A stretch of 31,729 nt of DNA from a virus (IMGVR_UViG_3300045988_181180); one strand, 5' to 3'. Counted from the stretch's first letter, positions 7,119 through 29,818 are shown. A program made the numbers and translations. Notes: generated by a model from the letters alone, not told the origin.

Positions 7119-7126
7119 CAAAGATA
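7119..7126 (-). promoter_or_regulatory. Candidate Bacteroidota-type -7 promoter box (coding strand TATCTTTG)
   Basis: Plus strand reads CAAAGATA inside TGCAAAGATA, 16 nt upstream of the ATG at 7102. Confidence 0.45.
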
Positions 7127-7154
7127 GGTATGATGAGAACTATATAAAAATACG

Positions 7155-7613
7155 CTAGATCGGTGTGCCGAACATCTGCTTGAAGATGTCTGCCATCAGT
7201 CCCTGGTACTCATCGCCATAGAAGTAGCCCTCCATGTCGTTGAGCTTCATGATGGAGGCGTAGTACTTGCGATTGAACCATGGACGGCGCTGTCGTGGCT
7301 CGCCGAGGTTGTGCTTGGCACGGTACTCAGGGTCGAGGAACTCTAGGTCGCCGGGGTTGCCATGGTAATAGCCATTGCCTGTGCCCGTCTCTTGGTAGAG
7401 ACCGTAGAGCAGGAACTTGTGGGCTATCTGGCGAGAGGAACCGCCAAAGGATGTGGCTTGGACAGAGCTGAAGAGGGCACCGGTATGTCGGATGCGATAG
7501 TGGATGATTTTCTCTTTCCAGATATGCACCATCTCCTCTGCCCATCCTCGCTCGTAGGCGTAGATGTCCTCTTGTGAGACGGGTTGCTTGATGTCATTCG
7601 TTCCATTCCTCAT
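7155..7613 (-). CDS. Hypothetical morphogenesis protein
   Basis: 152-aa ORF with ATG start, overlaps the upstream gene by 20 nt. Confidence 0.5.
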   Translation of the reverse strand: MRNGTNDIKQPVSQEDIYAYERGWAEEMVHIWKEKIIHYRIRHTGALFSSVQATSFGGSSRQIAHKFLLYGLYQETGTGNGYYHGNPGDLEFLDPEYRAKHNLGEPRQRRPWFNRKYYASIMKLNDMEGYFYGDEYQGLMADIFKQMFGTPI

Positions 7614-8124
7614 AATTATACTCCAGGTCTAGTGGCTCGCTCACGTCAAGATGGAACTCGACGCCTGTGAGACCGTTGATGAAATAGGCACCTATCTCTC
7701 GGCTGTCTATCTGGTCGCTGAGGGTGTAGGTGTTATAGTTGTCTTGCCAGTTGTATTTGTCGATGACAATCTTGCTCAGGAACTGTCGGAATATCTTGCG
7801 GCAGGTGTTGAGCTTCTCTTGTCGGTCGTTCATGTCGAACTGTTTGTATCGCATGAGAATCCACACGGTATAGGTCATCACCTTGCGATAGCTGCCATCG
7901 CCGTTGATGGCGACGTTGCCCTCGTTGGTGTCGTCGATGACCACGAAGTTTTTGCTCTTCGCCATATTCTGTAGCATGCCCTCAAACGAGGCAGGGGTGC
8001 TGCAGGTGGTTGGAGTGAAGCCAAGCTCGGAGGTGAGCTTGTTTTGGCGGGTGAGGTCTCTAAAGTAAGAGAAGGCATCGAACCCCACCTGAGTGTCGGG
8101 AGTCTTAACATCTGTACTGATCAT
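7594..8124 (-). CDS. Hypothetical morphogenesis protein
   Basis: 176-aa ORF; ATGA start/stop overlap with the upstream gene at 8121..8124, indicating translational coupling. Confidence 0.5.
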   Translation of the reverse strand: MISTDVKTPDTQVGFDAFSYFRDLTRQNKLTSELGFTPTTCSTPASFEGMLQNMAKSKNFVVIDDTNEGNVAINGDGSYRKVMTYTVWILMRYKQFDMNDRQEKLNTCRKIFRQFLSKIVIDKYNWQDNYNTYTLSDQIDSREIGAYFINGLTGVEFHLDVSEPLDLEYNYEEWNE

Positions 8125-8918
8125 GATTTTTGTTTTAATCGTTTGTCTAACTCGTCAGCCTCGCGAGCCTTGGCATCCAGTTCGGTGAGTGCTCGCCATA
8201 CGTCTGAGTCTCTAATCTGCCCTTCTTTGGTGATGTCGCCGCCCGTGAGGGCACGGATCTGGGCGTTCATCGCCTCTATCATATCGTAGTCGCCATCAGC
8301 TGAAGCTGGCTTGAAGAGGTGTGGAAAACTTGTGGAAAAGTTTTGCTTGACCCACATGAACCACAGGAAGGCACCCATCACCTCGACTGGCGTACACTCG
8401 ATATGTTCGGGTGGGTTGCCCTTGGCATCGAGATAGAGGTAGCGCATCATCTCTCTGAGCGGTGCGTCGCTCGACTGGTCTGACTGCAGAAACTGCTGGA
8501 AGTAGTTGTCGGCGATGAGGTAATGTTGAAATGGGTACTCGTGCAGCTCGATGTCGGCGGCTTGGAAAAGCCCGATATGATCGAGGCGGTTGTCTGCGCC
8601 CTTGCCGTCGAATATGTAGTCGAAGGCTTGGCAGAAGTCTTGCACTTGCCATAGCTGAAGGAAGAAGCGCACAGTCTTGCCACTGTCTAGCTGGGTTTGG
8701 CAGAGCCAGCCGTCTTTTTTCTCGTTGAGCACCTCGATGCCAGCGAAGCGAGCGAAGAGGTAGGTGCGCACCTGCCACTCTTGCCACCCTTGGGTGAGGA
8801 GGTAGAGCACGTAGCGCAGCTGGTCTTGGGTGAGCTCGCCCCAGGAGTGAGGCACGTGGAGGTTGAGCGTGCCGTCAGCCAGCAAAGAAGAAGGTTGTGT
8901 CGTCAGCATTGTTTTCAT
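8121..8918 (-). CDS. Hypothetical morphogenesis protein
   Basis: 265-aa ORF with ATG start in the long structural operon. Confidence 0.5.
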   Translation of the reverse strand: MKTMLTTQPSSLLADGTLNLHVPHSWGELTQDQLRYVLYLLTQGWQEWQVRTYLFARFAGIEVLNEKKDGWLCQTQLDSGKTVRFFLQLWQVQDFCQAFDYIFDGKGADNRLDHIGLFQAADIELHEYPFQHYLIADNYFQQFLQSDQSSDAPLREMMRYLYLDAKGNPPEHIECTPVEVMGAFLWFMWVKQNFSTSFPHLFKPASADGDYDMIEAMNAQIRALTGGDITKEGQIRDSDVWRALTELDAKAREADELDKRLKQKS

Positions 8919-9720
8919 AAGCTATATTGTGGCTAGCCTTGTAGGCGGTGGAATCTCTATATTTGGCGAAGTCATCGATGTTATCGTCTATGAGGGAGAG
9001 TAGGCTGAAGAAGAGTTTGTCTCTCGCCCTGAGGTCGATGGAATCGCCGTTTTTTGTGATATGGCACCCGATGAAATCGTAGATGCGCATGATGGCGACC
9101 CGATGGGAGGTGGTCGGGAACTGAGCCTTGCGCTCCTCTTCGAGCAACTGGTCTATCTGTGCATCGGAGAGCTCTCGGCGCAGGAAGGTCTCGGCTTGGT
9201 CTATCTCGCCCTTGTGCGCCACGAGGTCATCGAAGGTAAGCTTGCCGGGGATGCCGCAGAACTTGTTGAGGATGTATGGCGACCAAATGAAGGAGCGGAT
9301 GGTGTTGAAGGCTTGCAAGCTGTCAGCCCAGCCCTCGACCTGTCGCAATCGGTTGATGACGTTGTGCTGGGCGTAGTCTCGCCTGTAGGCAAGCTCGTGC
9401 TCCATGGCATCGACACGAGCCTGTGAGGCTGGGGCGATGTTGTCGTTGGAGACCACCCCGAAGCCGTTGTCGGTCATGATGATGTCGTGGGAGTGGAGAC
9501 TATCGAGGAAGGTGGCCAGTATGACATAGTCTCTGGCGTAGCGCTGCAGGGGCGAGTCTTCGGTCGAGACCGCTTGCTCGGCATCTGCGCCCACGACGGT
9601 GGCGATAAGATCGTCAAAATGGTTCTCGAAGGATGGCTGCATCTTGGTGAAGACATCCTCGGAGGCTGCCGCCACGAATGGCAGCAGCTGCTCGAACTGG
9701 TTTATATCAATCTGTATCAT
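8875..9720 (-). CDS. Hypothetical morphogenesis protein
   Basis: 281-aa ORF with ATG start; overlaps neighbours by 44 nt and 14 nt. Confidence 0.5.
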   Translation of the reverse strand: MIQIDINQFEQLLPFVAAASEDVFTKMQPSFENHFDDLIATVVGADAEQAVSTEDSPLQRYARDYVILATFLDSLHSHDIIMTDNGFGVVSNDNIAPASQARVDAMEHELAYRRDYAQHNVINRLRQVEGWADSLQAFNTIRSFIWSPYILNKFCGIPGKLTFDDLVAHKGEIDQAETFLRRELSDAQIDQLLEEERKAQFPTTSHRVAIMRIYDFIGCHITKNGDSIDLRARDKLFFSLLSLIDDNIDDFAKYRDSTAYKASHNIAYENNADDTTFFFAG

Positions 9721-11113
9721 CTTGTTGCTTTGATTTTAGGTTGTTGGAAACTTGCTTGGCATCCTTGTTCTCGTCGAGGGTGGTGAGCATGATGAGCGGC
9801 ACGTCTGGATAGACCTTCTGCTCCCAGTGGTTGAAGTAGATGACCACCCAGTGAACGGTCTCCATGAGGTCGTGGAACGCCTTCTCTATCGACTGCTTGA
9901 GGGTGAAGAGCTCTCGCTTGTCTGAGCCAGAGTTGTTGGTTTGGCTCTTGCCCGGTGTGGCGCCCACGAGATTAGGGTGGATGTTGTCGGCATAACACTG
10001 CATGTTGTTGCTCTCGGCGATGTCGTCGCTGTAGTCACCGCCATCCTTTGAGGTGTCGATGCGCGTGATGCGCACCATCTTTACCTCTTTGCCATCAGGT
10101 GTGGTGTAATAGCCCGCTATCCAGAGCTTGCCGCTATTCTCGATGCCTGAGATGAAGGAGCGGATTTTTTCTTTCTCCTTCAGCTTGCGCTCCTTTTGCT
10201 TTGCCTTGTCGGTGATGTGCTCCTCTTGGAAGATGCCACGCCAATAGTCGTTGTGTATCTCTACGAGGTAAGGGATGGCAGCGTGGTTTTTGAGCTTTGC
10301 CATCTTGCCGATGGCGATGAGCCGGGAGATGTCGTACCACTTGTCTCGGAAGATGGCGCTGTAGTAGGGCACGGGGTAGTATTGACTGCCAGGAGTAGGG
10401 AAGCGAGTCACGATGGCGAAGACTCTGTCTTTGCACTTTGCTCCACCCGTCTGTCTGGTCAGGGTCTGTCCGCTTTGACCGTCGAGCCCCATGCGCTGCT
10501 GTAGGTCGCCCAGTGGGTCTAGCTCGTCGAGGAGTGGCAGCACCTCGATGTTGTCGGGATTGACGGCATTGCGCCAGTTGGCATAGAGCACGTATTCGGA
10601 GCGACCGTTTTTGCTCTGGGTGAACCGACAGTAGCACGCCTCTTTGTGCCGGATGCCCACGATGCGATCGCCCTTTTTGTTGAGGATGATGGCTGAGACA
10701 CAAAAGAAGAAGTACTTCATGTCTGTGATTTGCTCGAGGAAGAAGCGCGAGAGGTTGTTGTGCATCTTGAAGAGGTTGACCTCTTTGTCTTGTGTCGGAA
10801 GCTTTGTCTTGATGTCGTTGTACTGGAAGCCCATGCCGTAGCAGGTGAGCACGTTGAAGAGCTTGTTTTGCGCCATCACGCTGCTCTCGCCGATGTTTTT
10901 GATGAGCTGGTAGGGCAGCTTGTTGTCTGCCCCGAAGGGGATGTAGGTGTATCTTTGCTTGTCCACCTCTACGGAGACGGTGGGTGTGGTACCATCATCA
11001 TCGAAGATGGATGAGGACTCGACGAAGCCGCTGGTGGGCGACGAGGTCTGGTAATCGAGCACCTCGCCCATGGTGGCGTATGTGATGTCTATGTTATTGC
11101 TTTTGTCTGCCAT
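9707..11113 (-). CDS. Hypothetical virion protein, portal-size candidate
   Basis: The track ORF 9707..11284 is trimmed to the in-frame ATG at 11113 (MADKSNN...) so it no longer overlaps the upstream 86-aa gene. 469 aa with an acidic C-terminus; the portal call is inference from size and position only. Confidence 0.45.
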   Translation of the reverse strand: MADKSNNIDITYATMGEVLDYQTSSPTSGFVESSSIFDDDGTTPTVSVEVDKQRYTYIPFGADNKLPYQLIKNIGESSVMAQNKLFNVLTCYGMGFQYNDIKTKLPTQDKEVNLFKMHNNLSRFFLEQITDMKYFFFCVSAIILNKKGDRIVGIRHKEACYCRFTQSKNGRSEYVLYANWRNAVNPDNIEVLPLLDELDPLGDLQQRMGLDGQSGQTLTRQTGGAKCKDRVFAIVTRFPTPGSQYYPVPYYSAIFRDKWYDISRLIAIGKMAKLKNHAAIPYLVEIHNDYWRGIFQEEHITDKAKQKERKLKEKEKIRSFISGIENSGKLWIAGYYTTPDGKEVKMVRITRIDTSKDGGDYSDDIAESNNMQCYADNIHPNLVGATPGKSQTNNSGSDKRELFTLKQSIEKAFHDLMETVHWVVIYFNHWEQKVYPDVPLIMLTTLDENKDAKQVSNNLKSKQQDDTD

Positions 11114-11118
11114 AATCT

Positions 11119-11379
11119 TTATAAGTATATTGAATGGTCGTTGTATCTGAAGATGAAAATGTCTCTCACCTTGCGTATCTGGTGGTTGACTGGGTTGTAG
11201 AGGGTGTGGGTGCCGTTTTGCCAGGATGAGGACTTGACGAGCCATCCCCTGTACTGGATGATGGAACCATCGCCGCCCTTCCAACAGTCGATGTCAACGG
11301 GCGAGCGGTCGATGCGCGAGATGTCGAGGGCACGGCGCAGCTCGTTGATGTGTATTGCCTTGGGTGTCTTGTCTGCCAT
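11119..11379 (-). CDS. Hypothetical small protein
   Basis: 86-aa ORF with ATG start between two larger structural genes. Confidence 0.45.
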   Translation of the reverse strand: MADKTPKAIHINELRRALDISRIDRSPVDIDCWKGGDGSIIQYRGWLVKSSSWQNGTHTLYNPVNHQIRKVRDIFIFRYNDHSIYL

Positions 11380-11396
11380 ATATCTGAAGATGTTTT

Positions 11397-12458: not shown

Positions 12459-12481
12459 ATCAATGTCTCATTAAAACGATG

Positions 12482-12489
12482 CAAAGATA
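12482..12489 (-). promoter_or_regulatory. Candidate -7 promoter box (TATCTTTG) for the morphogenesis operon
   Basis: Plus strand GCAAAGATA, 23 nt upstream of the ATG at 12458 and immediately downstream of a terminator hairpin. Confidence 0.5.
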
Positions 12490-12513
12490 GGAAGGAAGGG
12501 GAGAAAATAAAAA

Positions 12514-12542
12514 TACCTGATTGTCATCACGACAACCAGGTA
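12514..12542 (-). terminator. Intrinsic-type terminator after accessory operon A
   Basis: Stem TACCTG-a-TTGTC / GACAA-c-CAGGTA (11 bp with one mismatch, 5-nt loop), followed on the minus strand by TTTTTATTTTCTCC (12501..12513). Confidence 0.5.
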
Positions 12543-12635
12543 TCGACTCATGGAGCTGACCACGCCTTGTTAAGCCTAAGGCTCCATTCCGAGACTGTTT
12601 TATGTTGTAAATGAAAAAAAATGTGCTTGTCTTGC

Positions 12636-12947
12636 TTACTCTTCGGGCTGTGCGCAGTTGATTATCCAGACGAGTCTGCCACCCTCGACAGACTTCATCT
12701 TGAAGCCGTGCTCGACCATGTACTCGGTGATGACGGGGATGGGAGCGACGACCATGCCGCTGATGGCCTCTTGTATATCTTTGGAGGATAGGAAGTCAAC
12801 GCATTGGCTGTATGGGTCATCGCCCGGTGTGTCGCCCTCGAAGTAAGCGTCGAGCGCCATGCGCACATAGTCGATCTTGCTCTCTTGCTCTGACTGTTGC
12901 TGCTCGTCGCTGTTAGCACTGAAGCCCATCACACGCATACGTTTCAT
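12636..12947 (-). CDS. Hypothetical acidic small protein (accessory operon A, gene 3)
   Basis: 103-aa ORF; ATGA overlap with the upstream gene at 12944..12947. Confidence 0.45.
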   Translation of the reverse strand: MKRMRVMGFSANSDEQQQSEQESKIDYVRMALDAYFEGDTPGDDPYSQCVDFLSSKDIQEAISGMVVAPIPVITEYMVEHGFKMKSVEGGRLVWIINCAQPEE

Positions 12948-13213
12948 GCCTCACCTCCTTTCGTCTCCAGTGCTATGTTGATGGTCTTGAAGAGCTTGCT
13001 CATGTGGTCGAAGTTGTTGAGCATGAGTAGCACTTTGTCGGCACCGCCTAGGTCTTCGACACAGTTGGTCACCACCTCGTCTGAGATAAGCACCTTTTTG
13101 ACTTGCTCTAGGTACTCGATGAAGTAGCTGAGCTGGTTGACATCCATCATTTCTACGAGCGCATTCCAGACCTCTGCTGTCATGTGCATATTTGTTGCGT
13201 TGTTTGTGTTCAT
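12944..13213 (-). CDS. Hypothetical small protein (accessory operon A, gene 2)
   Basis: 89-aa ORF; ATGA overlap with the upstream gene at 13210..13213. Confidence 0.45.
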   Translation of the reverse strand: MNTNNATNMHMTAEVWNALVEMMDVNQLSYFIEYLEQVKKVLISDEVVTNCVEDLGGADKVLLMLNNFDHMSKLFKTINIALETKGGEA

Positions 13214-13575
13214 GCTACGACTCCTCCCATCAGATAACCACCAAAGAAAACCACTGCCATGAAGGCTGCAAAGCCTAGTGTGGCCTTGACCACCTCGCCG
13301 TAGGTCACGCTCTCGTCGCAGAGTGCGGTGAAGGTCTCGCTCTTGGTCTTGGCGAGCTTCTTGATTTCACACTTGAGGGTATTGATACCCTCCTCTACGC
13401 TGATGCCTGCAGGTCTCACCTGCGCATCACTAATTAAAATTGAATTCTGCATAATTGCCATCTTATAACCATTATAGACCGACCTTGATGTATAAATACA
13501 ATGGTGGCGGTCACATTCACCGTTGGTTATAAGATGGTAGCTTTCCCAGCGAAGGGCAAGTATCTTACGGATCAT
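13210..13575 (-). CDS. Hypothetical small protein with a C-terminal hydrophobic helix (accessory operon A, gene 1)
   Basis: 121-aa ORF ending in ...ATLGFAAFMAVVFFGGYLMGGVVA, a probable tail-anchored transmembrane segment. An alternative in-frame ATG at 13461 would give 83 aa. Confidence 0.45.
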   Translation of the reverse strand: MIRKILALRWESYHLITNGECDRHHCIYTSRSVYNGYKMAIMQNSILISDAQVRPAGISVEEGINTLKCEIKKLAKTKSETFTALCDESVTYGEVVKATLGFAAFMAVVFFGGYLMGGVVA

Positions 13576-13599
13576 GCAACCGCCATATTGAAAAGACCT

Positions 13600-13619: not shown

Positions 13620-13854
13620 TGATACTTTATAGGCATAAAAAAAGCCCACGGCGTGAAGCCTAGGCGAAACAGTCGCCATCGCTGAGTAGATTACTACTAT
13701 CTTATAACCGATGGCAAAAGTACGAAGAATAATTGGAACCGCCAAAAAAAAAGCGAGAAATTTTGAAATAAATGACTTTTTTATGTTTTAGAGCATAAAA
13801 CAAGGGGGTGAGGAACGAAAAAGCCCCGGATGCTCACGCACCCGAGGCTGACAG

Positions 13855-14684: not shown

Positions 14685-15112
14685 TATTGGATACTTTTTT
14701 GCATTGATTTTTCACTGAAAGAGAATACCTCAGCCATATCATCAGGCGAGGTGATGCTCATGAGCGATGGGCTGACCTCAAGAGCCACCTCAATGTCTTC
14801 AATGGAAGCATCTTTATCTTGTTTGATGATGTACTTATCCTCATGCTCTTCAATCTCTTTATCAAACTCTTCTTCGGTAATATTGCCGTCAAGCATTTCG
14901 CAATATAGTTTGAAGTAGTTGCGCTCACGTGTGCGGTTGTTAACGGCACGAGTCATCAACTCCTTGAGTCTGTCGGCAGTACTAATGTTGAAAAAGTTAG
15001 CCTTATTGGTAACACCAGCGAATGCAACCTTGCCAGTACCTTTGTCTTGTATAGCCACAACAGGGCTGCCATCAGTTTGGTATGTTGTATATATAGTCGT
15101 TGTATTGCTCAT
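14684..15112 (-). CDS. Hypothetical small protein (accessory operon B, gene 1)
   Basis: 142-aa ORF with ATG start; -7 box TATCTTTG at 15143..15150, 30 nt upstream, and a TTTG about 20 nt further upstream. Confidence 0.5.
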   Translation of the reverse strand: MSNTTTIYTTYQTDGSPVVAIQDKGTGKVAFAGVTNKANFFNISTADRLKELMTRAVNNRTRERNYFKLYCEMLDGNITEEEFDKEIEEHEDKYIIKQDKDASIEDIEVALEVSPSLMSITSPDDMAEVFSFSEKSMQKSIQ

Positions 15113-15142
15113 AATTCACATCCTGTTTATATTAACACGGTG

Positions 15143-15150
15143 CAAAGATA
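15143..15150 (-). promoter_or_regulatory. Candidate -7 promoter box (TATCTTTG) for accessory operon B
   Basis: Plus strand TGCAAAGATA, 30 nt upstream of the ATG at 15112; a TTTG on the coding strand lies about 20 nt further upstream (plus-strand CAAA at 15171..15174). Confidence 0.5.
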
Positions 15151-15299
15151 CGGTTATTTTTTGTAAATCGCAAATTTAATGATAAATTTAACAACAAAAA
15201 TTGCAATAAAGATTGGAAAATGGTATATAAAGAATGCTCGACCGCTTTTTGGCTCTTGCCAGACGCTTTCGCCGCAGGCGAAAATTTTTGGAAAATGAG

Positions 15300-15321
15300 G
15301 GGGAAGGTTTTAGCCTTCCCC
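15300..15321 (-). terminator. Hairpin terminator downstream of the radC-like gene
   Basis: 8-bp perfect stem GGGGAAGG / CCTTCCCC with a 6-nt loop, 20 nt after the stop; T-rich on the minus strand afterwards. A second hairpin at 15267..15284 is followed by TTTTT on the plus strand. Confidence 0.5.
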
Positions 15322-15340: not shown

Positions 15341-16024
15341 TTATAGCTTTCCTTTGTCGTGGTAGCTGTAGAAGCCATCCTCAGCCAAGATGATATGGTC
15401 CATCAAGAAAAGTCTCATCACCTCGCACGCCTTGGCTATCTTCTGCGTGAGCATATCGTCCGCCTTGCTCGGCTGCGTGCTGTTCGATGGGTGGTTGTGT
15501 GCCACGGCGATGATGGTTGCATTGTTGAGCACGGCTTCTTTCATTATCAGTCGAACGTCCACCGCTGTCTCGGTGATGCCTCCCTCGCTGAGCTTGGTGC
15601 ACTTTATCAGCCTAAAGTTTTGGTTCATCAGCACTACCCAAAAGCCCTCTGTCTCATTGCAGCCTATCATTGGGCGAAGATAGTTGTAGAGTGCCAGGCT
15701 GCTGCCTAGGTCGGTGTTTCTCGCTACCTTTTCCATTTGGTAGCGTCTGCCTAGCTCGATGGCTGCCTGTAGGGCTATCGCCTTGCAGTCTCCAATTCCT
15801 GGTACCACTTCCAGGTCTTCTATTCTCGCCTTGCCGATGTTGCGAAGCGAGTTGCCCATGATGTTATAAATCTGTCGTGCCTGCTCTTGGCTGTCCTTGG
15901 TACCTGCCCCTCTGTTGATTACCAAAGAAATCAAGTCAACGTTGGTAAGGGTGTCGAAACCTTGGTTATAGGCTCTGTACTGCGGTCTCTCCTCCATACA
16001 AAGATTGTTATAATTTTGTCTCAT
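15341..16024 (-). CDS. radC: RadC-like JAB/MPN-domain protein, full length with N-terminal helix-hairpin-helix
   Basis: 227 aa. Contains the family signature IAVAHNHPSNSTQPSKADDMLTQKI (HNHPS..PS..D) and an upstream HhH-like VPGIGDCKAIALQAAIELGRR. A hairpin terminator follows at 15300..15321. Confidence 0.8.
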   Translation of the reverse strand: MRQNYNNLCMEERPQYRAYNQGFDTLTNVDLISLVINRGAGTKDSQEQARQIYNIMGNSLRNIGKARIEDLEVVPGIGDCKAIALQAAIELGRRYQMEKVARNTDLGSSLALYNYLRPMIGCNETEGFWVVLMNQNFRLIKCTKLSEGGITETAVDVRLIMKEAVLNNATIIAVAHNHPSNSTQPSKADDMLTQKIAKACEVMRLFLMDHIILAEDGFYSYHDKGKL

Positions 16025-16039: not shown

Positions 16040-16564
16040 TTAGTTATACATTCTCTTTGTTCTCGCTAGGAACATCGCTCCCATCACTTGTGCGCCACAT
16101 TCGGCTAGCTCGTTGGCGAACTCTCGGGCGGTCGCTCCGCTCGTCACCACGTCGTCGAAGATGATGACTTTCTTTCCGCTGAAGTACTCTCTATCGAGTG
16201 CCACTCTGTAGTCGAAGCTCTCACACACTCTGTCTGTGCTGAAGTGCTTGGCTGTGCGCTCTCCATAGATGGAAATGTGCTCGTTTCCGTTCTGTACCTT
16301 TGCGCCTTGGCTCACCTTTTGGGCGAAGCGAGAAAAGCGCTTGGTGTACTTCTTTGAGTTGGCTGCTGGAGCGCAAACCATCACGAAGTCGCTGGCTTTG
16401 TCGCCATAGGTGTTGACGAAAGAGCTGACCACCATATCGGCAGCTGCGTCTGTCGCCCACTGCTTTCCATCCTTGAAGGCAAAGATGAAGTTTCTCACTT
16501 GCTCTGCTTGTGCTGAGCGGTCGAAACGCTTGGAGCTGTACTCGTAATAATTGAAAGTTTTCAT
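16040..16564 (-). CDS. Type I phosphoribosyltransferase-domain protein (ComF-like PRTase, lacks the ComF zinc-finger N-terminus)
   Basis: 174 aa with the PRPP-binding motif KKVIIFDDVVTSGATAREF near the C-terminus; 15 nt upstream of the radC-like gene on the same strand. Confidence 0.65.
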   Translation of the reverse strand: MKTFNYYEYSSKRFDRSAQAEQVRNFIFAFKDGKQWATDAAADMVVSSFVNTYGDKASDFVMVCAPAANSKKYTKRFSRFAQKVSQGAKVQNGNEHISIYGERTAKHFSTDRVCESFDYRVALDREYFSGKKVIIFDDVVTSGATAREFANELAECGAQVMGAMFLARTKRMYN

Positions 16565-17462
16565 ACGCTTAAAATTTTTATTCTAGCCAGAGGGAGGAAG
16601 GAGCTTTTTTATTTGAACTCGTCTTTGCCTGCCCGTCTGAGAGTTTTTTTTATTCTGTCCGTCGGTCGTTTTTGTCGCTTTTTACGGTGCGATGCAGACG
16701 AGCGGAGAAGAGGTATGAAAGCCAAGGAATTTTGCAAAAAGTTTATGGAAAACCGTCATCTCTGATTGCGGAAGGCTGCCGAAAAGTTTTTGGAAAATAG
16801 ATTTATCGGTACTTGGTGCATGCCGTCCGCCGTACCTTTGCACCCGAAAAAGAGATAATGACCGATGGATAACCGATAAAGGGAAAAGCTCTCGGACAGG
16901 AAAAGCGGGCAAAGAAAAGGCTCTGCCTTACCTTGGTGGTTAAGCCTTAGCGACGTTTGAGCGCCATCACGGTCACCACCGCTTGAAAATTCGCAAATTT
17001 TAACCCTAGCGTATGAAATGAAAGATGGAAAATTTGCGTCATCAAAAACACCATGTTTTTCAGACTTCAGGAGGAAAAACATACCTTGGAGCGATGAAAT
17101 CGCAGCATTTGGCAGGCTTCGACCCCGAGGTTGAAGATGCCAAATGTGTCGTTTTACGACAGGTTTTCCACACCCACGGATTGGAAAACCCCGATTTTAT
17201 CGTGGTTTTAGGGATTCAAAGGGAAAATAATTCCCCTTTGTCGGCGATAGCACCCCCCACCGCCCTACGCCCGAGCGCGCCTTCCGCCCCCTTGGAAAAG
17301 ACGGAATATGTAAAAGACCGTTAACGTTTTTGTAGGAATGTAAAAAGCCAAAAGGCACGAAAAAAGGGAACACGCTTCGCAGCGCACTCCCCTTATCGGC
17401 GGTCAAGCAAGAATGCCAGCCACCTAACTTATATAAGAATCGTACTATCTAAAGAAATCAAA

Positions 17463-19064
17463 CTATAGCATGGAACCCGTGGCGATGTAGCCATCAGCCT
17501 GAGGGTATTTCTCCATGCCAATCATGAGCGTGTCGTAGGCATCGGAGCCATCGGTGCGAGCCTCCAACTTATCCTCCTCGGTCTCAGCCAGCTTCTCGCC
17601 TCGCTTATCCTTCTTGCCGTTGTAGACCCCGGCCAGGCGGATGGAGATGAGCAGGTCTTCGTTGTTCTCGCTGTTGATCATCGAGCGATGCTCAGCCTTG
17701 CCGAGGAACATGCGGTTGAGCAGAAGCATCTTTTCGAGATGTCCCATCGGGTTGCCCAGATAGACCTCGTTGACATACCAGCCATGGTCGGTGAGGTAGT
17801 CGGTGATGAAGGTATGGAAGTCATCGTTCATCAGGGCGTAGTTGTTGCCCACGAAGGTGGAGTCGTAGTAGAAGTTGACCTCTTTGCACCGATGGTACTC
17901 ATAGTACTGCATGAACTTGTCGAGCAGGGCTGGCAGCTTCTCCTCATACTTCACGAAGATGCTCTTGAGGCAGCGTGCCTCGCCCCGCAGGTTGTCTTGT
18001 CCGACGGCTATCCAGTTGATGAGGGCGTTGGCATCGAAGGCGATGCAGAGCGGACGGTCGGGGTCAACGTCGGCATCCATTCTGGAATCTACATGCTTGA
18101 GCTTGTCGATGTCGTAGCCCAAGCCATCGAGGTAGGCGAGGTTGGGCGCCGTGTATAGGTTGGCATCCCTGAGGTTGGAGTAGAAGCCATCGAGCGAGAT
18201 GGAAGGTCGCTTGCACATGATGGAGGTCTGGAAGGTGAGGGCAGGGAGGTCTCGCTTCATCTGCTTGATGAACTCCATGCCGAGCACCTCGATGTTATAG
18301 ACCGATGAGTACTCTTTATAGAAGAGTGCCTTGGAGCGCAGTTGCGCCAGGAGCTGACCAATCTCTCGGAGTCGGCGCTGGGCATAGCCTGAGACATGGC
18401 CCGAGGTCTTGATGCGGTTGCGTATGTCATACTCCTCTACCACGAGCGAGGCGATGGCGTCGATGAGCTGCTGGTCGCAGTCTTTCTTGTAGTTGAGGAA
18501 CCAGGAGCCCTTCTTGGTCACGGGCATATCAGAGGTGATGAGCATGCCATGGTGGTAGTAGTGCTGGCCGAAGAGGTTGACGTTGCCTCGATTGGCAGGG
18601 AAGGTCTCGTCTTTGAGCTGTTCGAAGTTGATGAACTTCGCCTCGTCGATGTCGAGGTAGTCGAGCGAGAGGGAGTTGGAGGTACCCTTGCGGTCTTGCG
18701 AGATGATGGTACCGATGGAGCCGTTATAGAATGAGATGGTGTTCTCCCAGTTGCTGGGCGGTATGACCGGGTCGGGCCATCCCAGTTTTTTGGGAGGCTT
18801 GACCCCGATGAGATAATGCTTGCCCCGGTGGAAGCCCCATCGCTCCCAGTGCTGAAGCATCGACGGTATGGTGTTGGTGAGGCATCGCTTGGTGTTGGCG
18901 GATACGAAGCCGCCGTTGCTGCCAGGCATGCGCTGCATGTTGCGCAGGTTGAAGGTGGCGTGGAGAATGCTCTTGCCGATGCCTCGACCGCCCACGACCA
19001 CGTTGTCGCGGGCGGAGATGAGGTTGACCTCCATCTGGGCTGGGTTGAGATATTGATCTATCAT
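17463..19064 (-). CDS. Terminase large subunit
   Basis: 533 aa; Walker A VVVGGRGIGKSIL near the N-terminus and Walker B-like LDYLDIDEA; ATGA overlap with the upstream gene. Confidence 0.8.
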   Translation of the reverse strand: MIDQYLNPAQMEVNLISARDNVVVGGRGIGKSILHATFNLRNMQRMPGSNGGFVSANTKRCLTNTIPSMLQHWERWGFHRGKHYLIGVKPPKKLGWPDPVIPPSNWENTISFYNGSIGTIISQDRKGTSNSLSLDYLDIDEAKFINFEQLKDETFPANRGNVNLFGQHYYHHGMLITSDMPVTKKGSWFLNYKKDCDQQLIDAIASLVVEEYDIRNRIKTSGHVSGYAQRRLREIGQLLAQLRSKALFYKEYSSVYNIEVLGMEFIKQMKRDLPALTFQTSIMCKRPSISLDGFYSNLRDANLYTAPNLAYLDGLGYDIDKLKHVDSRMDADVDPDRPLCIAFDANALINWIAVGQDNLRGEARCLKSIFVKYEEKLPALLDKFMQYYEYHRCKEVNFYYDSTFVGNNYALMNDDFHTFITDYLTDHGWYVNEVYLGNPMGHLEKMLLLNRMFLGKAEHRSMINSENNEDLLISIRLAGVYNGKKDKRGEKLAETEEDKLEARTDGSDAYDTLMIGMEKYPQADGYIATGSML

Positions 19065-19690
19065 AGTGCTTTGTCCTCCTTGACTTCTTCTGTAGGTGTA
19101 TATTCCAAGAGCTGTTCGTCGTAGTCCTCGGCCTCGATCTTGACGAGATCCATGGAGTTGTCGGTGTATTTCTTGACGAGCTTCTTGATGGTCTGCATCA
19201 CGTTAGGGATGCGCTTGAGACCCAAGTGTCGTGGGTCGGTGGTAGGGATGAAGACCTGAGGCTGTATCTGGTCGTAGCCGTTGTCGGTAGGATCCTCTTT
19301 GTCGAGCAGGTGATATTTGCCGTATGCAGCTGCGGCGGCAGCCATGGCTCGGGCATCGCCCATGGAGTCGGCCTTGTCGTAGGTGCGCTGTATCATCTGG
19401 TCGAAGCGATAGCGGGCGAAGTCTTTTGACACTTTTTGCAGGTTGCCCAATATGAGCTTGATGAGGTGCAGGTCGTTGTAAGCCATCATGCGCTGCACCT
19501 TGTAGTCGTGCATATCTTTATAGACCAGCTCTTGGTCGCTCTTGCGAGGGTTGATGAGCCACCAGGCATAGAGGGCACGGATGCGCAAAATGCGGTCGCG
19601 CACTGGGGCGGGCACATTTTGCGCATCCATCTCTTCGGGTGTGCGGTCCATCAGTTCGATGATGGCATCGATGTTGGCGGGTTCTCTCAT
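19061..19690 (-). CDS. Hypothetical protein, terminase small subunit candidate
   Basis: 209-aa ORF translationally coupled (ATGA) to both neighbours and directly upstream of the large terminase. Function is inferred from position only. Confidence 0.45.
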   Translation of the reverse strand: MREPANIDAIIELMDRTPEEMDAQNVPAPVRDRILRIRALYAWWLINPRKSDQELVYKDMHDYKVQRMMAYNDLHLIKLILGNLQKVSKDFARYRFDQMIQRTYDKADSMGDARAMAAAAAAYGKYHLLDKEDPTDNGYDQIQPQVFIPTTDPRHLGLKRIPNVMQTIKKLVKKYTDNSMDLVKIEAEDYDEQLLEYTPTEEVKEDKAL

Positions 19691-19968
19691 ATTCTAATCT
19701 CCTCTAACATTTGGTTCAGATATTCGTGTGTGCGCTGCACCGCCTGTGGCGAGCCAGCCGCAGCCAGGTCTAGCTCGTTTTTGCGTATCTGCTGGCGCAC
19801 CGTCGCCATGCCCAAGTAATAGACACGGTGAAGCTCGGAGTCGGGCTTCAGTATCTCGTCACGCAGATCGTCCTCGCTAATATCCAAAAGGACGGACATC
19901 TCGGATATCGGAGTCAACGTCTCCGCGAAGTCTTGCACTTTTTTGAGTAATTCCTGAGAAATTTCCAT
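19687..19968 (-). CDS. Hypothetical small protein
   Basis: 93-aa ORF with ATG start; ATGA overlap with the downstream gene; 92-nt out-of-frame overlap with the upstream 191-aa ORF. Confidence 0.4.
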   Translation of the reverse strand: MEISQELLKKVQDFAETLTPISEMSVLLDISEDDLRDEILKPDSELHRVYYLGMATVRQQIRKNELDLAAAGSPQAVQRTHEYLNQMLEEIRI

Positions 19969-21286: not shown

Positions 21287-21883
21287 TTATGCCGCCTCCC
21301 ATACAGAGCCATCGGAACCCTTGATGTCTCCGGACTCAGTCTCGATCTTGCCAGGATAGAACGGTGTAGGGCAGAAGTCTGTCGCCTCGGTGTTGACGGT
21401 CGTGGTGCAAGCATCGGTCACGCCGCTGCCTGATGCCTGGCTGACGGTAATCTTAGGTGCGAATGCCTCGCAGCCGATGAGACGGGCACGACCCTTGCGG
21501 TCTTGCACCATCATGATGAGCTCGTCGTTGATAGCCATGGTAGCGAAGCCACTGATGTCCTCGTCGGTACCACCCACCACGAACTCGCCTTTGTTGAGGA
21601 ACGTAGCGGAAGGTGCCTCGCCCTGAGTCTCTGCAGTAAAATTGCTCTTGGCATCTACGAGGTCGAGACTGTGCCACTTGGCATCGCTCGCCAAGGTGAA
21701 GTCGCCTGTATATTGAGCCAGCTTAGCTGGGTCTGTGGTCTCGTCAGTTGCCGCTGGCAATGTTGGCCAAGTCAGAATCTGACTCTTCAAGATGAAGAAA
21801 ACACGAGGGCGAACGCCTGGGGCTATGCGAGCCCCAGGACATTTCTTAACTGATTTATATAAATCTTTTGTATTACAAGCCAT
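21287..21883 (-). CDS. Hypothetical head-associated protein (decoration or minor capsid candidate)
   Basis: 198-aa ORF 34 nt downstream of the putative capsid gene; followed by a strong hairpin terminator at 21202..21230. Confidence 0.45.
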   Translation of the reverse strand: MACNTKDLYKSVKKCPGARIAPGVRPRVFFILKSQILTWPTLPAATDETTDPAKLAQYTGDFTLASDAKWHSLDLVDAKSNFTAETQGEAPSATFLNKGEFVVGGTDEDISGFATMAINDELIMMVQDRKGRARLIGCEAFAPKITVSQASGSGVTDACTTTVNTEATDFCPTPFYPGKIETESGDIKGSDGSVWEAA

Positions 21884-21916
21884 AATTTTATCTCCTATAT
21901 ATAATAAGGTGAAACT

Positions 21917-23026: not shown

Positions 23027-23027
23027 A

Positions 23028-24053
23028 TTATGCAAACTGATTTAAAACATCCAACACTTGATCTGAGCAGAAATCCTCGACCTTGGTGTCATCGACAGCA
23101 GTGTGCGTGTCGCCACCAGGCTCTCCCTCCAGATCCTTCACTTTATCCTTCAGGTCATCTCTCTCCTTTTCGAGATTCTTGACCTTAGTCTCTAACTCCT
23201 TCTTCTCGTCCTTGACCTTCTGAAGCTCTGTGTCTTTGTCGGTCACGGCCTTGGAGTCGGCAGCGATCTTATCCTCCAGTTTCTGCATCTGCTCCTGTGA
23301 GATTGTGCAGTTCTTTGCGGAATCTTCTGCCTCAATGCCCTCGATATTGAGGACATTGTTGATGTGAGTCCATTTTTTGATCATATTAATAATTTTATTT
23401 TGTGATTTATCTTTGCCGAATAATCGGTCGATGATGCTTGGCTTTTTATCATACCAGGAGTTAACAACCTCTGGGAGAACAGGAAGGTTGTTGTACTTGA
23501 TGAAGTCTTGCGTCTGCTCGGTGATGTCGGCAGGCTTGCCATCCATGGCTTCATCGACGAGACCCAGTTCGATGCACTCATCGACGGTGTGCCACATCGC
23601 TTCGGACATCACCTTGACGATGTCCTCGTGCTTCTTGCCCGAGCGATCGCAGTAAACGTTGGCGATGATGTTGTCGATTTTCTGCTGGTTCTCTTGCTGT
23701 TTTTGAAGTTGCTCGATGAGCGAGCCTATCTGCTCCTCGTTGAGCGCAGACCACACAAACTGCTCGGTAGAGCACTTGTGTACCAGGAGCAAGCTATATT
23801 TGCTCATGCGAATCTTGCTGGCACCCATCGCACAGATGGTGGCAGCAGAGGCAGAGAAGCCCGCCTGGAAGTCAACGGTCACGTCGCCATGGGACTTGAA
23901 CATCTGACAGATGGCGAGACCTGCGGAGACCTCGCCACCCAAGGAGTCGATGGCAACATCGACGTGCTTATCTTTGTTGGCCTTAAGAACATCGCGAACC
24001 ATGAGCTTGGTCCACGAGCCAATATATCCTGTGATAGAAATTTGGTACTTCAT
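23028..24053 (-). CDS. ClpP-family prohead protease with C-terminal coiled-coil (scaffold-like) extension
   Basis: 341 aa. N-terminal half has ClpP-like motifs (IDSLGGEVSAGLAICQ and FSASAATICAMGA); C-terminal third is a charged heptad-rich coiled coil. -7 box 23 nt upstream. Confidence 0.7.
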   Translation of the reverse strand: MKYQISITGYIGSWTKLMVRDVLKANKDKHVDVAIDSLGGEVSAGLAICQMFKSHGDVTVDFQAGFSASAATICAMGASKIRMSKYSLLLVHKCSTEQFVWSALNEEQIGSLIEQLQKQQENQQKIDNIIANVYCDRSGKKHEDIVKVMSEAMWHTVDECIELGLVDEAMDGKPADITEQTQDFIKYNNLPVLPEVVNSWYDKKPSIIDRLFGKDKSQNKIINMIKKWTHINNVLNIEGIEAEDSAKNCTISQEQMQKLEDKIAADSKAVTDKDTELQKVKDEKKELETKVKNLEKERDDLKDKVKDLEGEPGGDTHTAVDDTKVEDFCSDQVLDVLNQFA

Positions 24054-24087
24054 ATATCTTTGCGATTTTTACGGCGCAAAGATATAT
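24052..24087. promoter_or_regulatory. 36-bp palindromic element: perfect 13-bp inverted repeat ATATATCTTTGCG / CGCAAAGATATAT with a 10-bp spacer, overlapping the protease start
   Basis: Left arm 24052..24064 is the exact reverse complement of right arm 24075..24087. Each arm contains a TATCTTTG -7 box in opposite orientation; the left arm overlaps the start codon. Confidence 0.6.
24077..24084 (-). promoter_or_regulatory. Candidate -7 promoter box (TATCTTTG) for the head operon, inside a 13-bp inverted repeat
   Basis: Plus strand CGCAAAGATA, 23 nt upstream of the protease ATG at 24053. Confidence 0.5.
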
Positions 24088-24113
24088 AATAATGTATAAG
24101 GATAAAAAAACTT

Positions 24114-24533: not shown

Positions 24534-24612
24534 GAAAATTTATCTTTTTGTTTGGAATCGACGGATATTTCGGTTTTGTTCGGAGTTGTTTGCAGAGACG
24601 GAAAAATTTGTA

Positions 24613-25197: not shown

Positions 25198-25217
25198 ATA
25201 GCTATGCAATTTTCGTG

Positions 25218-25225
25218 CAAAGATA
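25218..25225 (-). promoter_or_regulatory. Candidate -7 promoter box (TATCTTTG)
   Basis: Plus strand TGCAAAGATA, 20 nt upstream of the ATG at 25197. Confidence 0.45.
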
Positions 25226-25340
25226 CAAAGAAAATTTGAAATAACTAACGATAATCGGTAAAAACTAACTTTTATCAGTAAATTTGGTGTGATATAATTT
25301 CGTCCGAAAAGTTTGTATTTTTGTATCGTACAAACAAGGC

Positions 25341-25590
25341 TCTGTAACTAGCTGATAATCAATACTATTTTTGTGATACAATTTTCTGATACAGAAATTG
25401 TAACTCTTTAGCTTTTGTAACTTGGGGTTTTGTCGAGGTCGAAGACCTGTAGGAGAAGGGGCTTGTTACAAACTTGAAAAACTTTGTAACCGAGTTGTAA
25501 CGCAACTTTGTAAACATCGGCATGGCGGCTTAACTCACTCTTTTTTAGTTATTTACCTCTTTTGCTAACATTATGTTACAGAGTTACAAA
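25341..25590. repeat. Iteron-like cluster of the octamer TTTGTAAC (4 perfect and 5 one-mismatch copies, both orientations); candidate origin or regulator-binding array
   Basis: Perfect copies at 25414..25421 (+), 25465..25472 (-), 25483..25490 (+), 25583..25590 (-). One-mismatch copies at 25341..25348, 25397..25404, 25494..25501, 25507..25514 and 25575..25582. A given 8-mer is expected about 0.008 times in 250 bp on both strands. Confidence 0.65.
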
Positions 25591-25686
25591 GGATTTGTAT
25601 AAAATAAAAGAAAGGGGTGTGGGGAAAACGATGGCACGGGGCGTGAAGGAGGTTAGAAAAGGCCCATCGAGACACCCAGGACACCC

Positions 25687-25700
25687 CCATTGGCCAATGG
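25687..25700. repeat. Perfect 14-bp palindrome CCATTGGCCAATGG
   Basis: Self-complementary 14-mer in the GC-rich part of the noncoding region between the iterons and the primase terminator. Confidence 0.6.
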
Positions 25701-25741
25701 AGGGGTAGCGAGACGAAACATCGCCCATGGCAACGAAAAAA

Positions 25742-25770
25742 GGGAGCGACGGCCAATGCGCATCGCTCCC
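25742..25770 (-). terminator. Intrinsic-type terminator downstream of the primase-helicase gene
   Basis: 8-bp perfect stem GGGAGCGA / TCGCTCCC with a 13-nt loop, followed on the minus strand by TTTTTT (plus-strand A-run 25736..25741). Confidence 0.55.
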
Positions 25771-25951
25771 TCGTAACATGGGAAAAGAATTATAAATCAG
25801 CAAAAATCTGCCTATGAAATCAGCCCTCGTCTGCTTGCAAAAATAGTGAAAAATTGCTTGAAAATTTAGCCGAAAATATTTGCATAATTCAGATATTTTT
25901 TGTACCTTTGCACTATAACTTGGGGCTATCTATTCTATTATATATGGATGG

Positions 25952-28906: not shown

Positions 28907-28933
28907 AATTCTTTTCCATTGTAAATTTTCTTG

Positions 28934-28941
28934 CAAAATTA
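28934..28941 (-). promoter_or_regulatory. Candidate -7 promoter box (TAATTTTG) for the primase-helicase gene
   Basis: Plus strand CAAAATTA, 27 nt upstream of the ATG at 28906. Confidence 0.4.
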
Positions 28942-29074
28942 TTGCAAGGCGAGTTCAAAACAAAATACTTATTTTTTGTCGCATAGAGCCTTTGGCTCAT
29001 ACTCGACGTATCTGTGGAGAGGGTGGCAGTATCTGCCATTGATGCAGTTGCTGCCATCCTCGCACTTTTGGCAT

Positions 29075-29386
29075 TTAATCGGTGGCATCGACTTTTATAT
29101 CAAAAGTGTCGTTGTGTAGCAACATCTTGGTATGAACATAAATTGGTTTTTGTTCATCCTCATCCCATCCAACCTCTCGGAAGTCTCTGCCATCGATATA
29201 GCATTCGGTGGCGTATCCTTTGTCGGTCCACTCTACGATATGGTCTTTGTCGAACTCGTCTCTTGCTGGCACTGTAGCCAGAACACGAGTGCCAAACTTG
29301 CTGTAGCTAATCTCGTGTATAGTGACGTTAGGGTATTTCTCGATGATTGCCTCCTCGATAGATTTTGTCTTAGTCTTCTTTTTCAT
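29075..29386 (-). CDS. Hypothetical early protein
   Basis: 103-aa ORF with ATG start in the early operon; overlaps the upstream gene by 17 nt. Confidence 0.45.
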   Translation of the reverse strand: MKKKTKTKSIEEAIIEKYPNVTIHEISYSKFGTRVLATVPARDEFDKDHIVEWTDKGYATECYIDGRDFREVGWDEDEQKPIYVHTKMLLHNDTFDIKVDATD

Positions 29387-29576
29387 TGTTCTTCATTCTG
29401 AATTTAACAATACCTGCCACGATGCCGTCTTCTTGGTCATCGTAGAACATATTTAAATCTGTTGTGCCCTTATGGAGTGTACCATAGGACACGTCAACGG
29501 CAACGCTGGCATCCTCGAAATCTTTGAGGATGGCTTGAAGCTGTTTGCTGTTGCATCTGACTGTCATTTTTCCCAT
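29370..29576 (-). CDS. Hypothetical early protein
   Basis: 68-aa ORF with ATG start; 13-nt overlap with the upstream gene. Confidence 0.4.
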   Translation of the reverse strand: MGKMTVRCNSKQLQAILKDFEDASVAVDVSYGTLHKGTTDLNMFYDDQEDGIVAGIVKFRMKNNEKED

Positions 29577-29782
29577 GATCCATCATTGATAATTTGCTCG
29601 ATGACCTCTCTGTCGATGGCACGCCAAGTATTGGTGCGCATCTTATTGTAGATGGTGTTCTGGCTCATCTCTAGCTTTAGCTGCAGTGTGGCCATGAACT
29701 TGCTTCTCTTTTTGCGTGGTATCTCATTATACCATGCGAGGATGATATTTTCATCATCATTTTTTTTGTTTTTTTCTTGCAT
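29564..29782 (-). CDS. Small basic protein, possible Cro/Xis-like DNA-binding protein; first gene of the early operon
   Basis: 72-aa ORF with ATG start, divergent from the HTH regulator gene; -7 box TAACTTTG 28 nt upstream. DNA-binding role is inferred from the basic composition and position. Confidence 0.45.
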   Translation of the reverse strand: MQEKNKKNDDENIILAWYNEIPRKKRSKFMATLQLKLEMSQNTIYNKMRTNTWRAIDREVIEQIINDGSWEK

Positions 29783-29799
29783 ATTCCAATATTTATTAT

Positions 29800-29807
29800 T
29801 AATTTTG
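29800..29807 (+). promoter_or_regulatory. Candidate -7 promoter box (TAATTTTG) for the HTH regulator gene
   Basis: Only TAnnTTTG match in the divergent intergenic region on the plus strand; 96 nt upstream of the ATG at 29904, so it would imply a long leader. Confidence 0.3.
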
Positions 29808-29810
29808 TTG

Positions 29811-29818
29811 CAAAGTTA
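29811..29818 (-). promoter_or_regulatory. Candidate -7 promoter box (TAACTTTG) for the early operon
   Basis: Plus strand CAAAGTTA, 28 nt upstream of the ATG at 29782; back to back with a plus-strand box at 29800..29807. Confidence 0.45.

Follow-up and report, generated by a model that had tools for sequence, protein, structure and literature searches.

Primary-sigma promoters of the Bacteroidota, described for Bacteroides fragilis, combine a -33 TTTG with a -7 TAnnTTTG element (the sigma-ABfr consensus), and genome-wide maps are available for B. thetaiotaomicron (PMC7366714), Flavobacterium psychrophilum (PMC9723704), and Segatella copri (10.1101/2024.04.05.588293). The consensus is present at 81% of the primary TSSs of B. 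thetaiotaomicron (PMC7366714), and the -7 box spans positions -12 to -5 relative to the TSS in F. psychrophilum (PMC9723704). For S. copri, a dRNA-seq preprint reported an extended -7 box ending in CA at >70% of primary TSSs, a -33 box at only ~15% of promoters, and no clear RBS (10.1101/2024.04.05.588293). Among phage promoters, P_BfP1E6 from a B. fragilis phage has been used as a strong, constitutive element for engineering Bacteroides (PMC11554821).

The sites described here lie in a 31,729-nucleotide stretch of viral DNA (IMGVR_UViG_3300045988_181180), referred to below as the window. They share with the Bacteroidota sigma-A promoters the same octamer, the CA extension seen in S. copri, similarly short distances to the start codons, at several sites a T-rich or TTTG element 19–20 nt upstream, and genes that mostly lack Shine-Dalgarno (SD) sequences. 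Unlike the sigma-A -33 TTTG, several window promoters have a TTTTT fused to a terminator T-tract, and the start sites, which are mapped in the known systems, are predicted here from sequence. By description, P_BfP1E6 is likewise a phage promoter working with the host transcription machinery in Bacteroidales, but it belongs to an unrelated phage of another host genus. The window sites are new, ordinary instances of a known promoter type, and no new principle is involved because the promoter type, the CA extension, and the missing SD sequences are already documented for the host. They yield a promoter and terminator map, now checked, of an S. copri prophage family that is common and uncharacterised, and show that the operon structure of gut phage contigs and the phylum of their hosts can be predicted with the host TAnnTTTGCA box.

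The window comprises most of a temperate phage integrated beside the TetR and fabG genes of Segatella (Prevotella) copri. It ends in these two S. copri genes, with the phage/host junction at ~30370 and homology to the empty site beginning at 30371. The TetR is 99% identical to that of S. copri HDD05, and related prophages in gut metagenomes are flanked by the same TetR. The Bacteroidota host that an earlier note on this DNA had deduced from promoter motifs is therefore shown directly by the flanking genes. Megablast of 25 kb against GenBank phages returned a single weak 364-nt match, leaving no annotated GenBank phage relative to rely on, and most phage proteins have no recognisable family in Pfam or PHROGs. 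Scans for sigma-70 hexamers were disregarded as irrelevant for this host.

Five boxes reading CAAAGATA on the plus strand, i.e. TATCTTTG on the gene strand, were found at 7119, 12482, 15143, 24077, and 25218, where the earlier note had placed them, with gaps of 16, 23, 30, 23, and 20 nt to the ATGs at 7102, 12458, 15112, 24053, and 25197, respectively. The next base is C in all five and CA follows in four, and all conform to TATCTTTGC. The box at 7119–7126 (minus strand, followed by CA) precedes a 1159-aa gene (predicted TSS ~7114) and is retained upstream of the orthologous genes in 25 of 27 distinct sequences, and that at 12482–12489 (minus, CA), upstream of a 353-aa gene (predicted TSS ~12477), is retained in all 32 orthologues. 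A 142-aa gene follows the box at 15143–15150 (minus, CA), which is retained in 13/13 orthologues, scores 28.3 bits with a PWM trained on Prevotellaceae host promoters only, and has a -33 TTTG within TAAATTTG at 15171–15178, 20 nt upstream. The box of the ClpP-like head protease gene (24077–24084, minus, CG; predicted TSS ~24072) is retained in 18/18 orthologues, and that of a 194-aa gene (25218–25225, minus, CA; 29.8 bits) in 28/28, as TATCTTTG every time. The variants proposed upstream of the primase gene and the early operon were found as well: TAATTTTGCA at 28934–28941 (box TAATTTTG, minus, CA) lies 27 nt upstream of the primase ATG and is retained in 18 of 19 orthologues, and TAACTTTGCA at 29811–29818 (box TAACTTTG, minus, CA; 26.4 bits, 16/16 orthologues) lies 28 nt upstream of the early-operon ATG at 29782. 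The longest primase ORF begins at a TTG within the 28934–28941 box; the real ATG is at 28906.

All seven boxes listed earlier are therefore real, but the list missed conserved boxes at 13715 and 25838 on the minus strand and at 16833, 25316, 25903, and 29800 on the plus strand. The box TACTTTTG at 13715–13722 (CC; 24.7 bits with the host-trained PWM) lies 139 nt upstream of the ATG at 13575 and is retained in 55 of 56 distinct homologous stretches, with a variable inner pair. Downstream of the conserved box TATTTTTG at 25838–25845 (CA), a hairpin and a T6 run are located at a distance of ~65–100 nt, making this a candidate for a short transcript. The strongest host-like promoter in the window (34.1 bits) is the box TACCTTTG at 25903–25910 (CA), which faces the primase gene at its 3' end, is retained in 23/23 relatives, and shares its exact -33 sequence, ATATTTGCAT, with the host TetR promoter. 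The box TAATTTTG at 29800–29807 (TT; 27.6 bits), retained in 22/22 relatives, lies 96 nt upstream of a Cro/C1-type repressor gene (29904–30281). Another copy of TACCTTTG, at 16833–16840 (CA), is retained in 8/8 homologous stretches with a variable inner pair and lies within an ORF-free region (16565–17462); no credible ORF was found near it. Gene-strand boxes are absent from this long gap and from that at 11285–11396, which speaks against the promoter reading given below. Rfam searches of the whole window, and again of 16500–17500, gave nothing meaningful; with RNAalifold, 16975–17462 showed a strong stability z-score and no clear covariation term. The host's own promoter, upstream of the S. 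copri TetR gene, has the box TAATTTTG at 30495–30502 (plus, CA) and provides, within the same window, an internal check on the CA extension. A -33 TTTG is present at the right spacing (~19–20 nt upstream) at 15143, 13715, 28934, 25903, and 30495, whereas a T-run replaces it at 7119, 12482, and 24077.

We consider it highly probable that these real and conserved boxes are ordinary host-type (S. copri) promoters at the operon starts of the prophage and not a class special to the phage. The octamer on the gene strand, found in 12 intergenic sense boxes that include the seven listed earlier, fits the Bacteroidota primary-sigma -7 consensus, as had been proposed, and the TATCTTTGC boxes and their variants would then be -7 elements (TAnnTTTG, -12 to -5) recognised by host RNA polymerase carrying the primary sigma factor. 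The boxes are all on the gene strand, in short gaps between genes, and transcription would start ~5 nt past the G, giving leaders of ~12–26 nt for the five TATCTTTG promoters, 23–24 nt for the primase gene and the early operon, and ~135 nt for the 13715 promoter. Together with intrinsic terminators, the boxes would delimit nine or more leftward units in the prophage (the early operon, the primase gene, the short 25838 unit, the 25197 unit, the head/packaging genes from 24053, and units beginning at 15112, 13575, 12458, and 7102) besides a few rightward transcripts. The earlier partition into discrete transcription units agrees with this arrangement of boxes and terminators, although the unit boundaries themselves are predicted. 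The trailing CA and the frequent TC simply reflect the box form preferred by the host. A conserved T-rich block 27 nt upstream occupies the -33 position at four promoters; at 12482, as in many other gut phages, the T-tract of a terminator abutting the promoter supplies this block. A point against the explanation is that constitutive host-type promoters by themselves leave the temporal control of the late genes unaccounted for.

More distinctive is the T-rich block, GT(A/T)TTTT(T/G), which is invariant and starts exactly 27 nt upstream of the boxes at 7119, 12482, 24077, and 28934, as GTATTTTTAT at 7144–7153 (in the -33 region, with no upstream hairpin), GTATTTTTAT at 12516–12507, GTTTTTTTAT at 24102–24111, and GTATTTTGTT at 28959–28968, respectively, all on the minus strand. 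At 12482, the block is the T-tract of an intrinsic terminator (12507–12544, minus; hairpin at 12544–12512) and occupies the -33 position of the promoter. This terminator has a GC-rich hairpin, a T-run, and pairing that has been maintained in evolution: 7 of the 11 pairs have changed in a compensatory manner, pairing is intact in 97% of cells, and 0/500 shuffles reach the covariation score. Terminators sit just upstream of promoters here. A terminator-like hairpin of 12 pairs with a T-run (13822–13849, minus) would end the unit begun at 15143, and a two-way terminator-like hairpin (15300–15321) is located after a RadC-like gene, upstream of the 15143 promoter. Such terminator–promoter cassettes are possible compact insulating parts for Bacteroidota engineering and a possible late-operon marker.

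It is conceivable, though we think it unlikely, that the morphogenesis promoters (24077, 12482, 7119, and perhaps 28934) form a phage-specific subclass defined by the -27 block rather than by the GC flank, the block being either a special -33 element or the site at which a late activator of the phage acts. The block is fully invariant across relatives (1.8–2.0 bits per position) while the spacer varies, GTATTTT[TG] on the gene strand is confined to these sites and always at -27, two promoters retain the block without a hairpin, and few host promoters have the block (3 of 213, P = 0.002). In loci picked by protein homology, which are not independent, TATTTTTAT precedes the box at a spacing of 17 in 24 of 31 distinct family contexts versus none of three host contexts; the family members themselves are non-independent samples, a point against this reading. 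Moreover, in 59 of 95 distinct IMG/VR contexts among the matches listed, which give neither a frequency nor a spacing preference, a strong hairpin ends at the block's G and has the block as its T-tract, and the hairpin at 12482 covaries. Double duty as a terminator tail and a T-rich -33 element accounts for much of the conservation of the block. The T-run also sits where the host -33 TTTG sits, and no activator was identified within the window using Pfam and PHROGs. The block is enriched over host promoters but largely explained as a terminator T-tract. We regard as similarly doubtful the idea that late-operon starts here and in other gut Bacteroidota phages are composite cassettes made up of a hairpin, TATTTTTAT, exactly 17 nt, and TAnnTTTGC, in which the T block would have turned into a fixed -33 element that was kept despite loss of the hairpin (7119 and 24077). 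If true, these cassettes would make up a promoter subclass typical of phages, on which a late regulator might act.

Opposed boxes are found at two of the predicted promoters. The 29800–29807 (plus) and 29811–29818 (minus) boxes form a palindrome, TAAYTTTG-N3-CAAAGTTA, and the product of the nearby repressor gene contains an HTH_26 domain. Two operator-like palindromes, ACTTACTTTCGTTAGT at 29838–29853 and ACCTATTATCATAGGT at 29860–29875 (together 29838–29875), cover the early promoter at its -33 region, and two operator-like 16-bp palindromes (25243–25279), one imperfect at 25243–25258 and the other ACTGATAAAAGTTAGT at 25264–25279, lie upstream of the 25218 box. As in lambdoid immunity regions, the repressor gene (Cro/C1-type HTH) is divergent from the early operon, and the paired 16-bp palindromes over the early -33 region, found again at a second early promoter (25218), would correspond to the lambdoid operators over promoters. 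Unlike lambdoid regions, the elements here are of the Bacteroidota type, with two -7 boxes 3 bp apart on opposite strands. At the head protease gene, an inverted copy of the 24077 box (24055–24062, plus) belongs to a 12-bp inverted repeat, TATATCTTTGCG-N10-CGCAAAGATATA (24051–24088), that ends at the ATG. We rejected this repeat as a regulated RNA structure because its covariation is too weak for such a claim.

We consider it quite unlikely that some of the boxes, instead of or besides being promoters, act as half-sites within protein-binding palindromes or as hairpin arms in RNA. Both inverted repeats, at 29800–29818 and 24051–24088, are present in relatives, and at 24077 a change from TATC to TAAC is matched by one from GATA to GTTA in several variants, with 92.9% of cells paired in seven variants. 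However, only a single pair covaries there, 22/500 shuffles reach the score, and only 9 of 19 relatives still have a box in place of the 24055 plus-strand copy. Opposite-strand boxes constitute an inverted repeat by definition, the 29800 and 29811 boxes each face a gene, and such a repeat is absent from the other promoters in the window.

The bases flanking the octamer had been taken by the earlier note as a sign of an element-specific promoter class, i.e. of TATCTTTGC promoters read differently from host promoters. This is not supported and very improbable. In 120 clusters of Prevotellaceae gene-upstream boxes, C directly follows the box in 62% (75% unweighted) and A takes the second position in 61–72%, as against ~30% and 25%, respectively, for boxes inside genes, so that the trailing C or CA is the host norm; the host TetR promoter in the window itself reads TAATTTTGCA, with CA. 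TC is the joint commonest inner pair of host boxes (17%). It is over-represented in the element (5 of 12 intergenic sense boxes, P = 0.036 against the host), and the 25218 promoter is invariably TATCTTTG in its 28 relatives. Across ~60 related prophages, however, orthologous sites keep the six fixed bases and leave the inner pair free to vary, and at a single orthologous promoter the pair switches among TC, AC, TT, CT, and AT. No sigma factor, RNA polymerase, or activator was recognised using Pfam and PHROGs in the window; as most ORFs are unassigned and the prophage extends leftward beyond the window, a phage-encoded regulator or sigma factor may nevertheless exist. Both the TC pair and the GC(A) flank are host-typical, and neither is absent from host promoters.

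Motif enumeration upstream of and inside genes gave the outcome expected for promoters. In the whole window, TATCTTTG was observed 11 times versus 1.26 expected and TAnnTTTG 35 times versus 12.8. On the intergenic sense strand (3 kb), TAnnTTTG occurs 12 times versus 1.7 expected when the intergenic DNA itself is shuffled, and with a trailing C 11 times versus 0.44. Counts within CDSs are at the level of chance as judged by codon shuffles (4 versus 2.9 for sense and 13 versus 9.4 for antisense), and the density is 28-fold greater in intergenic sense than in CDS sense (P = 7e-10). TTTGCA is within the top five over-represented intergenic hexamers, and the top 15 window matches of the host-trained PWM include 14 intergenic sites, among them all seven boxes of the earlier note. 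That the boxes are chance matches, as AT-rich intergenic DNA and the mild, unconserved excess of TATCTTTG antisense within genes might suggest, has a practically negligible probability and is refuted by the shuffles, none of 2000 of which reached 12, and by conservation of the sites while their flanks diverge. These five intragenic antisense copies (4654, 10950, 12776, 23408, and 23969; 1.3 expected) were also considered as antisense promoters and rejected because they are not kept in relatives.

The statement that most genes lack SD sequences is roughly right: SD-like pairing is absent in 24 of 33 genes and present in 9 of 33, compared with 19% of random 18-mers. It does not extend to five genes, which have strong SD-like sequences.

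The octamer TATCTTTG, a form of the -7 box TAnnTTTG, occurs in 11 copies on both strands against 1.26 expected. Its five gene-strand copies are located 16, 23, 30, 23, and 20 nt upstream of the ATGs at 7102, 12458, 15112, 24053, and 25197, respectively, and are followed by C in all five cases and by CA in four. The early-operon ATG (29782) is preceded by TAACTTTGCA at 28 nt and the primase ATG (28906) by TAATTTTGCA at 27 nt; the longest primase ORF starts at a TTG within the TAATTTTGCA box. When the box is placed at -12 to -5 relative to the transcription start (PMC9723704), the leaders of the five TATCTTTG promoters would be 12-26 nt long, much as in Bacteroides, where leaders are short (mode, 23 nt; PMC7366714).

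In total, 12 TAnnTTTG boxes were found on the intergenic sense strand (3.0 kb), whereas dinucleotide shuffles of the same DNA gave 1.7 and none of 2000 reached 12; with the trailing C, the numbers were 11 and 0.44. Within genes, the counts were close to those expected from codon shuffles (sense, 4 vs 2.9; antisense, 13 vs 9.4), and box density was 28-fold higher on the intergenic than on the CDS sense strand (P=7e-10). The motif is therefore not equally frequent inside coding regions, and the boxes reported upstream of start codons in the earlier note are real and non-random. In an unguided count, TTTGCA was among the top five over-represented intergenic hexamers. The top hexamer on the intergenic gene strand was TTTTCC (16 vs 1.5 expected). 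Antisense TATCTTTG inside genes was also in excess (5 vs 1.3 expected, P about 0.015); these copies are kept in near-identical relatives only and are best read as chance.

No close relative was found among GenBank phages. In IMG/VR, related elements number about 60, at 75-100% protein identity. When each promoter was anchored on its downstream protein and distinct upstream sequences from these relatives were compared, a box recurred at the matching position in 25/27, 32/32, 13/13, 18/18, 28/28, 18/19, and 16/16 sequences. The six fixed bases are invariant and the inner pair varies among TC, AC, TT, CT, and AT, as expected of a TAnnTTTG element rather than of a longer specific word. Conserved boxes absent from the earlier list were identified at 13715 (minus strand; 55/56) and 25838 (minus strand; same conservation test) and, on the plus strand, at 16833 (8/8), 25316 (38/38), 25903 (23/23), and 29800 (22/22).

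Almost every long ORF is on the minus strand, between 1 and 29782. The recognisable phage genes are those for a ClpP-type head maturation protease (23028-24053, minus), a weakly matching large terminase (17463-19064), an 1159-aa tail-type protein (3623-7102, minus), and a large primase-like protein. A Cro/C1 HTH gene (29904-30281, plus) diverges from the first minus-strand operon, and at the right end a TetR regulator gene (30552-31148) is followed by one for a fabG-type reductase (31164 onward). The TetR protein is 99% identical to that of Segatella copri HDD05, its remaining matches being from Segatella or Prevotella; its exact sequence is widespread across gut metagenomes, with related prophages at the same place in some contigs. 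Homology to unoccupied S. copri sites (e.g. HDD05) begins at 30371, placing the right prophage-host junction at 30370/30371. The phage genes, the TetR flank, and the empty-site homology together identify the element as a prophage of S. copri, and the flank directly confirms the Bacteroidota host proposed from the promoters. Breaks about 1.5 kb upstream of TetR recur in many metagenome contigs, which fits a polymorphic insertion.

The proposal that the GC flank marks an element-specific promoter class proved wrong. Prevotellaceae host loci totalling about 1.2 Mb served as the reference. Here, C follows 75% of the boxes situated no more than 120 nt upstream of genes, and A comes next in 72% (62 and 61%, respectively, when weighted over 120 sequence clusters), compared with about 30 and 25% for in-gene boxes. 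TC is the joint commonest inner pair there (17%), its excess among the intergenic sense boxes (5/12) is marginal (P=0.036), and the host TetR promoter inside the window is itself TAATTTTGCA. An S. copri dRNA-seq preprint (10.1101/2024.04.05.588293) reported a -7 box, printed 'TAnnTTTCA', at >70% of primary transcription start sites and a -33 box at 15%, without a clear ribosome-binding site. With a PWM trained on host sites only, 14 of the 15 best window matches were intergenic, including all boxes of the earlier note. On these data, TATCTTTGCA is the modal box of the host. The boxes add ordinary examples to a promoter type already known, and the main interpretation, Bacteroidota host-type promoters partitioning a prophage, is upheld.

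A more distinctive feature than the GC flank is a T block, GT(A/T)TTTT(T/G), which starts exactly 27 nt before the boxes at 7119, 12482, 24077, and 28934. GTATTTT(T/G) was found nowhere else on the gene strand; the block is invariant across relatives, in which the spacer varies, and is rare in host promoters (3/213, P=0.002). In IMG/VR, GTATTTTTAT-N17-TAnnTTTGC was found at at least 43 sites upstream of genes unrelated to the window, which encode, among the matches listed, small holin-like membrane proteins and tape-measure-like proteins. Because the G of the block marks the exact end of a strong hairpin in 59 of 95 distinct contexts among the matches listed, the block appears to be a terminator T-tract fused to the next promoter at the -33 position. 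At 7119 and 24077, it persists without a hairpin, so that a role as a phage-typical -33 or activator element is possible but unproven. Terminator-promoter cassettes at a series of IMG/VR loci (L204-L323) consist of a hairpin, TATTTTTAT, 17 nt, and TAnnTTTGC. Downstream of them lie genes for holin-like proteins of about 80 aa (MQRNTKDW...) and for tape-measure-like proteins, and at these genes the phage contigs show no similarity to the window.

Strong terminator-like hairpins at 13849-13822 and 12544-12512 (both minus) and a two-way one at 15300-15321 support the partition into transcription units, which outnumber those first proposed. The hairpin at 12512-12544 shows compensatory changes in 7 of 11 pairs with 97% pairing, and none of 500 shuffles was as good. 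Shine-Dalgarno-like pairing is absent from 24 of 33 genes; the other nine (9/33) can be set against 19% for random 18-mers. In five genes (12636-12950, 12944-13216, 17463-19080, 19061-19706, and 21287-21900) the Shine-Dalgarno-like sequence is strong, e.g. AAGGAGGTGAGGC upstream of the ATG at 12947, although the host reportedly has no consensus ribosome-binding site.

Together with an inverted copy at 24055, the 24077 box makes up a 12-bp repeat ending at the ATG; pairing is kept in 92.9% of cells, but no more than a single pair covaries. Boxes 29800 (plus) and 29811 (minus), 3 bp apart, point toward the repressor gene and toward the early operon, respectively. Two regions only, one upstream of the early promoter (29838-29875) and one upstream of the 25218 promoter (25243-25279), carry paired 16-bp palindromes (ACTNA-N6-TNAGT). 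The sequence of these palindromes changes together with repressor type in relatives, as operators would, and they probably serve the HTH_26 repressor as operators.

Among the promoters of the window, the most host-like is that at 25903-25910 (plus), whose -33 region matches the one of the host TetR promoter exactly. It is directed into the primase gene at its 3' end and may therefore yield an antisense RNA or cause transcriptional interference. Downstream of box 25838 (minus) come a GC hairpin (GGGAGCGA...TCGCTCCC) and T6 (about 25735-25770). The stretch 25735-25845 (minus) lacks a convincing ORF and is a candidate for encoding a small phage RNA, about 95 nt long. The roughly 900 nt after the terminase-like gene (16565-17462), which adjoin a PRTase-domain gene (16040-16564) and a RadC/JAB gene (15341-16024), have no credible ORF and no Rfam match, are conserved at 70-99% in all relatives, and contain box 16833 and many perfect local hairpins (z about -4.4 on both strands); it may function as a structured RNA or as a site for packaging or replication. 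Finally, an ORF-free stretch adjoining the primase gene (25330-25600), with box 25316 at its edge, carries about ten GTTACA/TGTAAC copies in both orientations, which look like the iterons of a replication origin.
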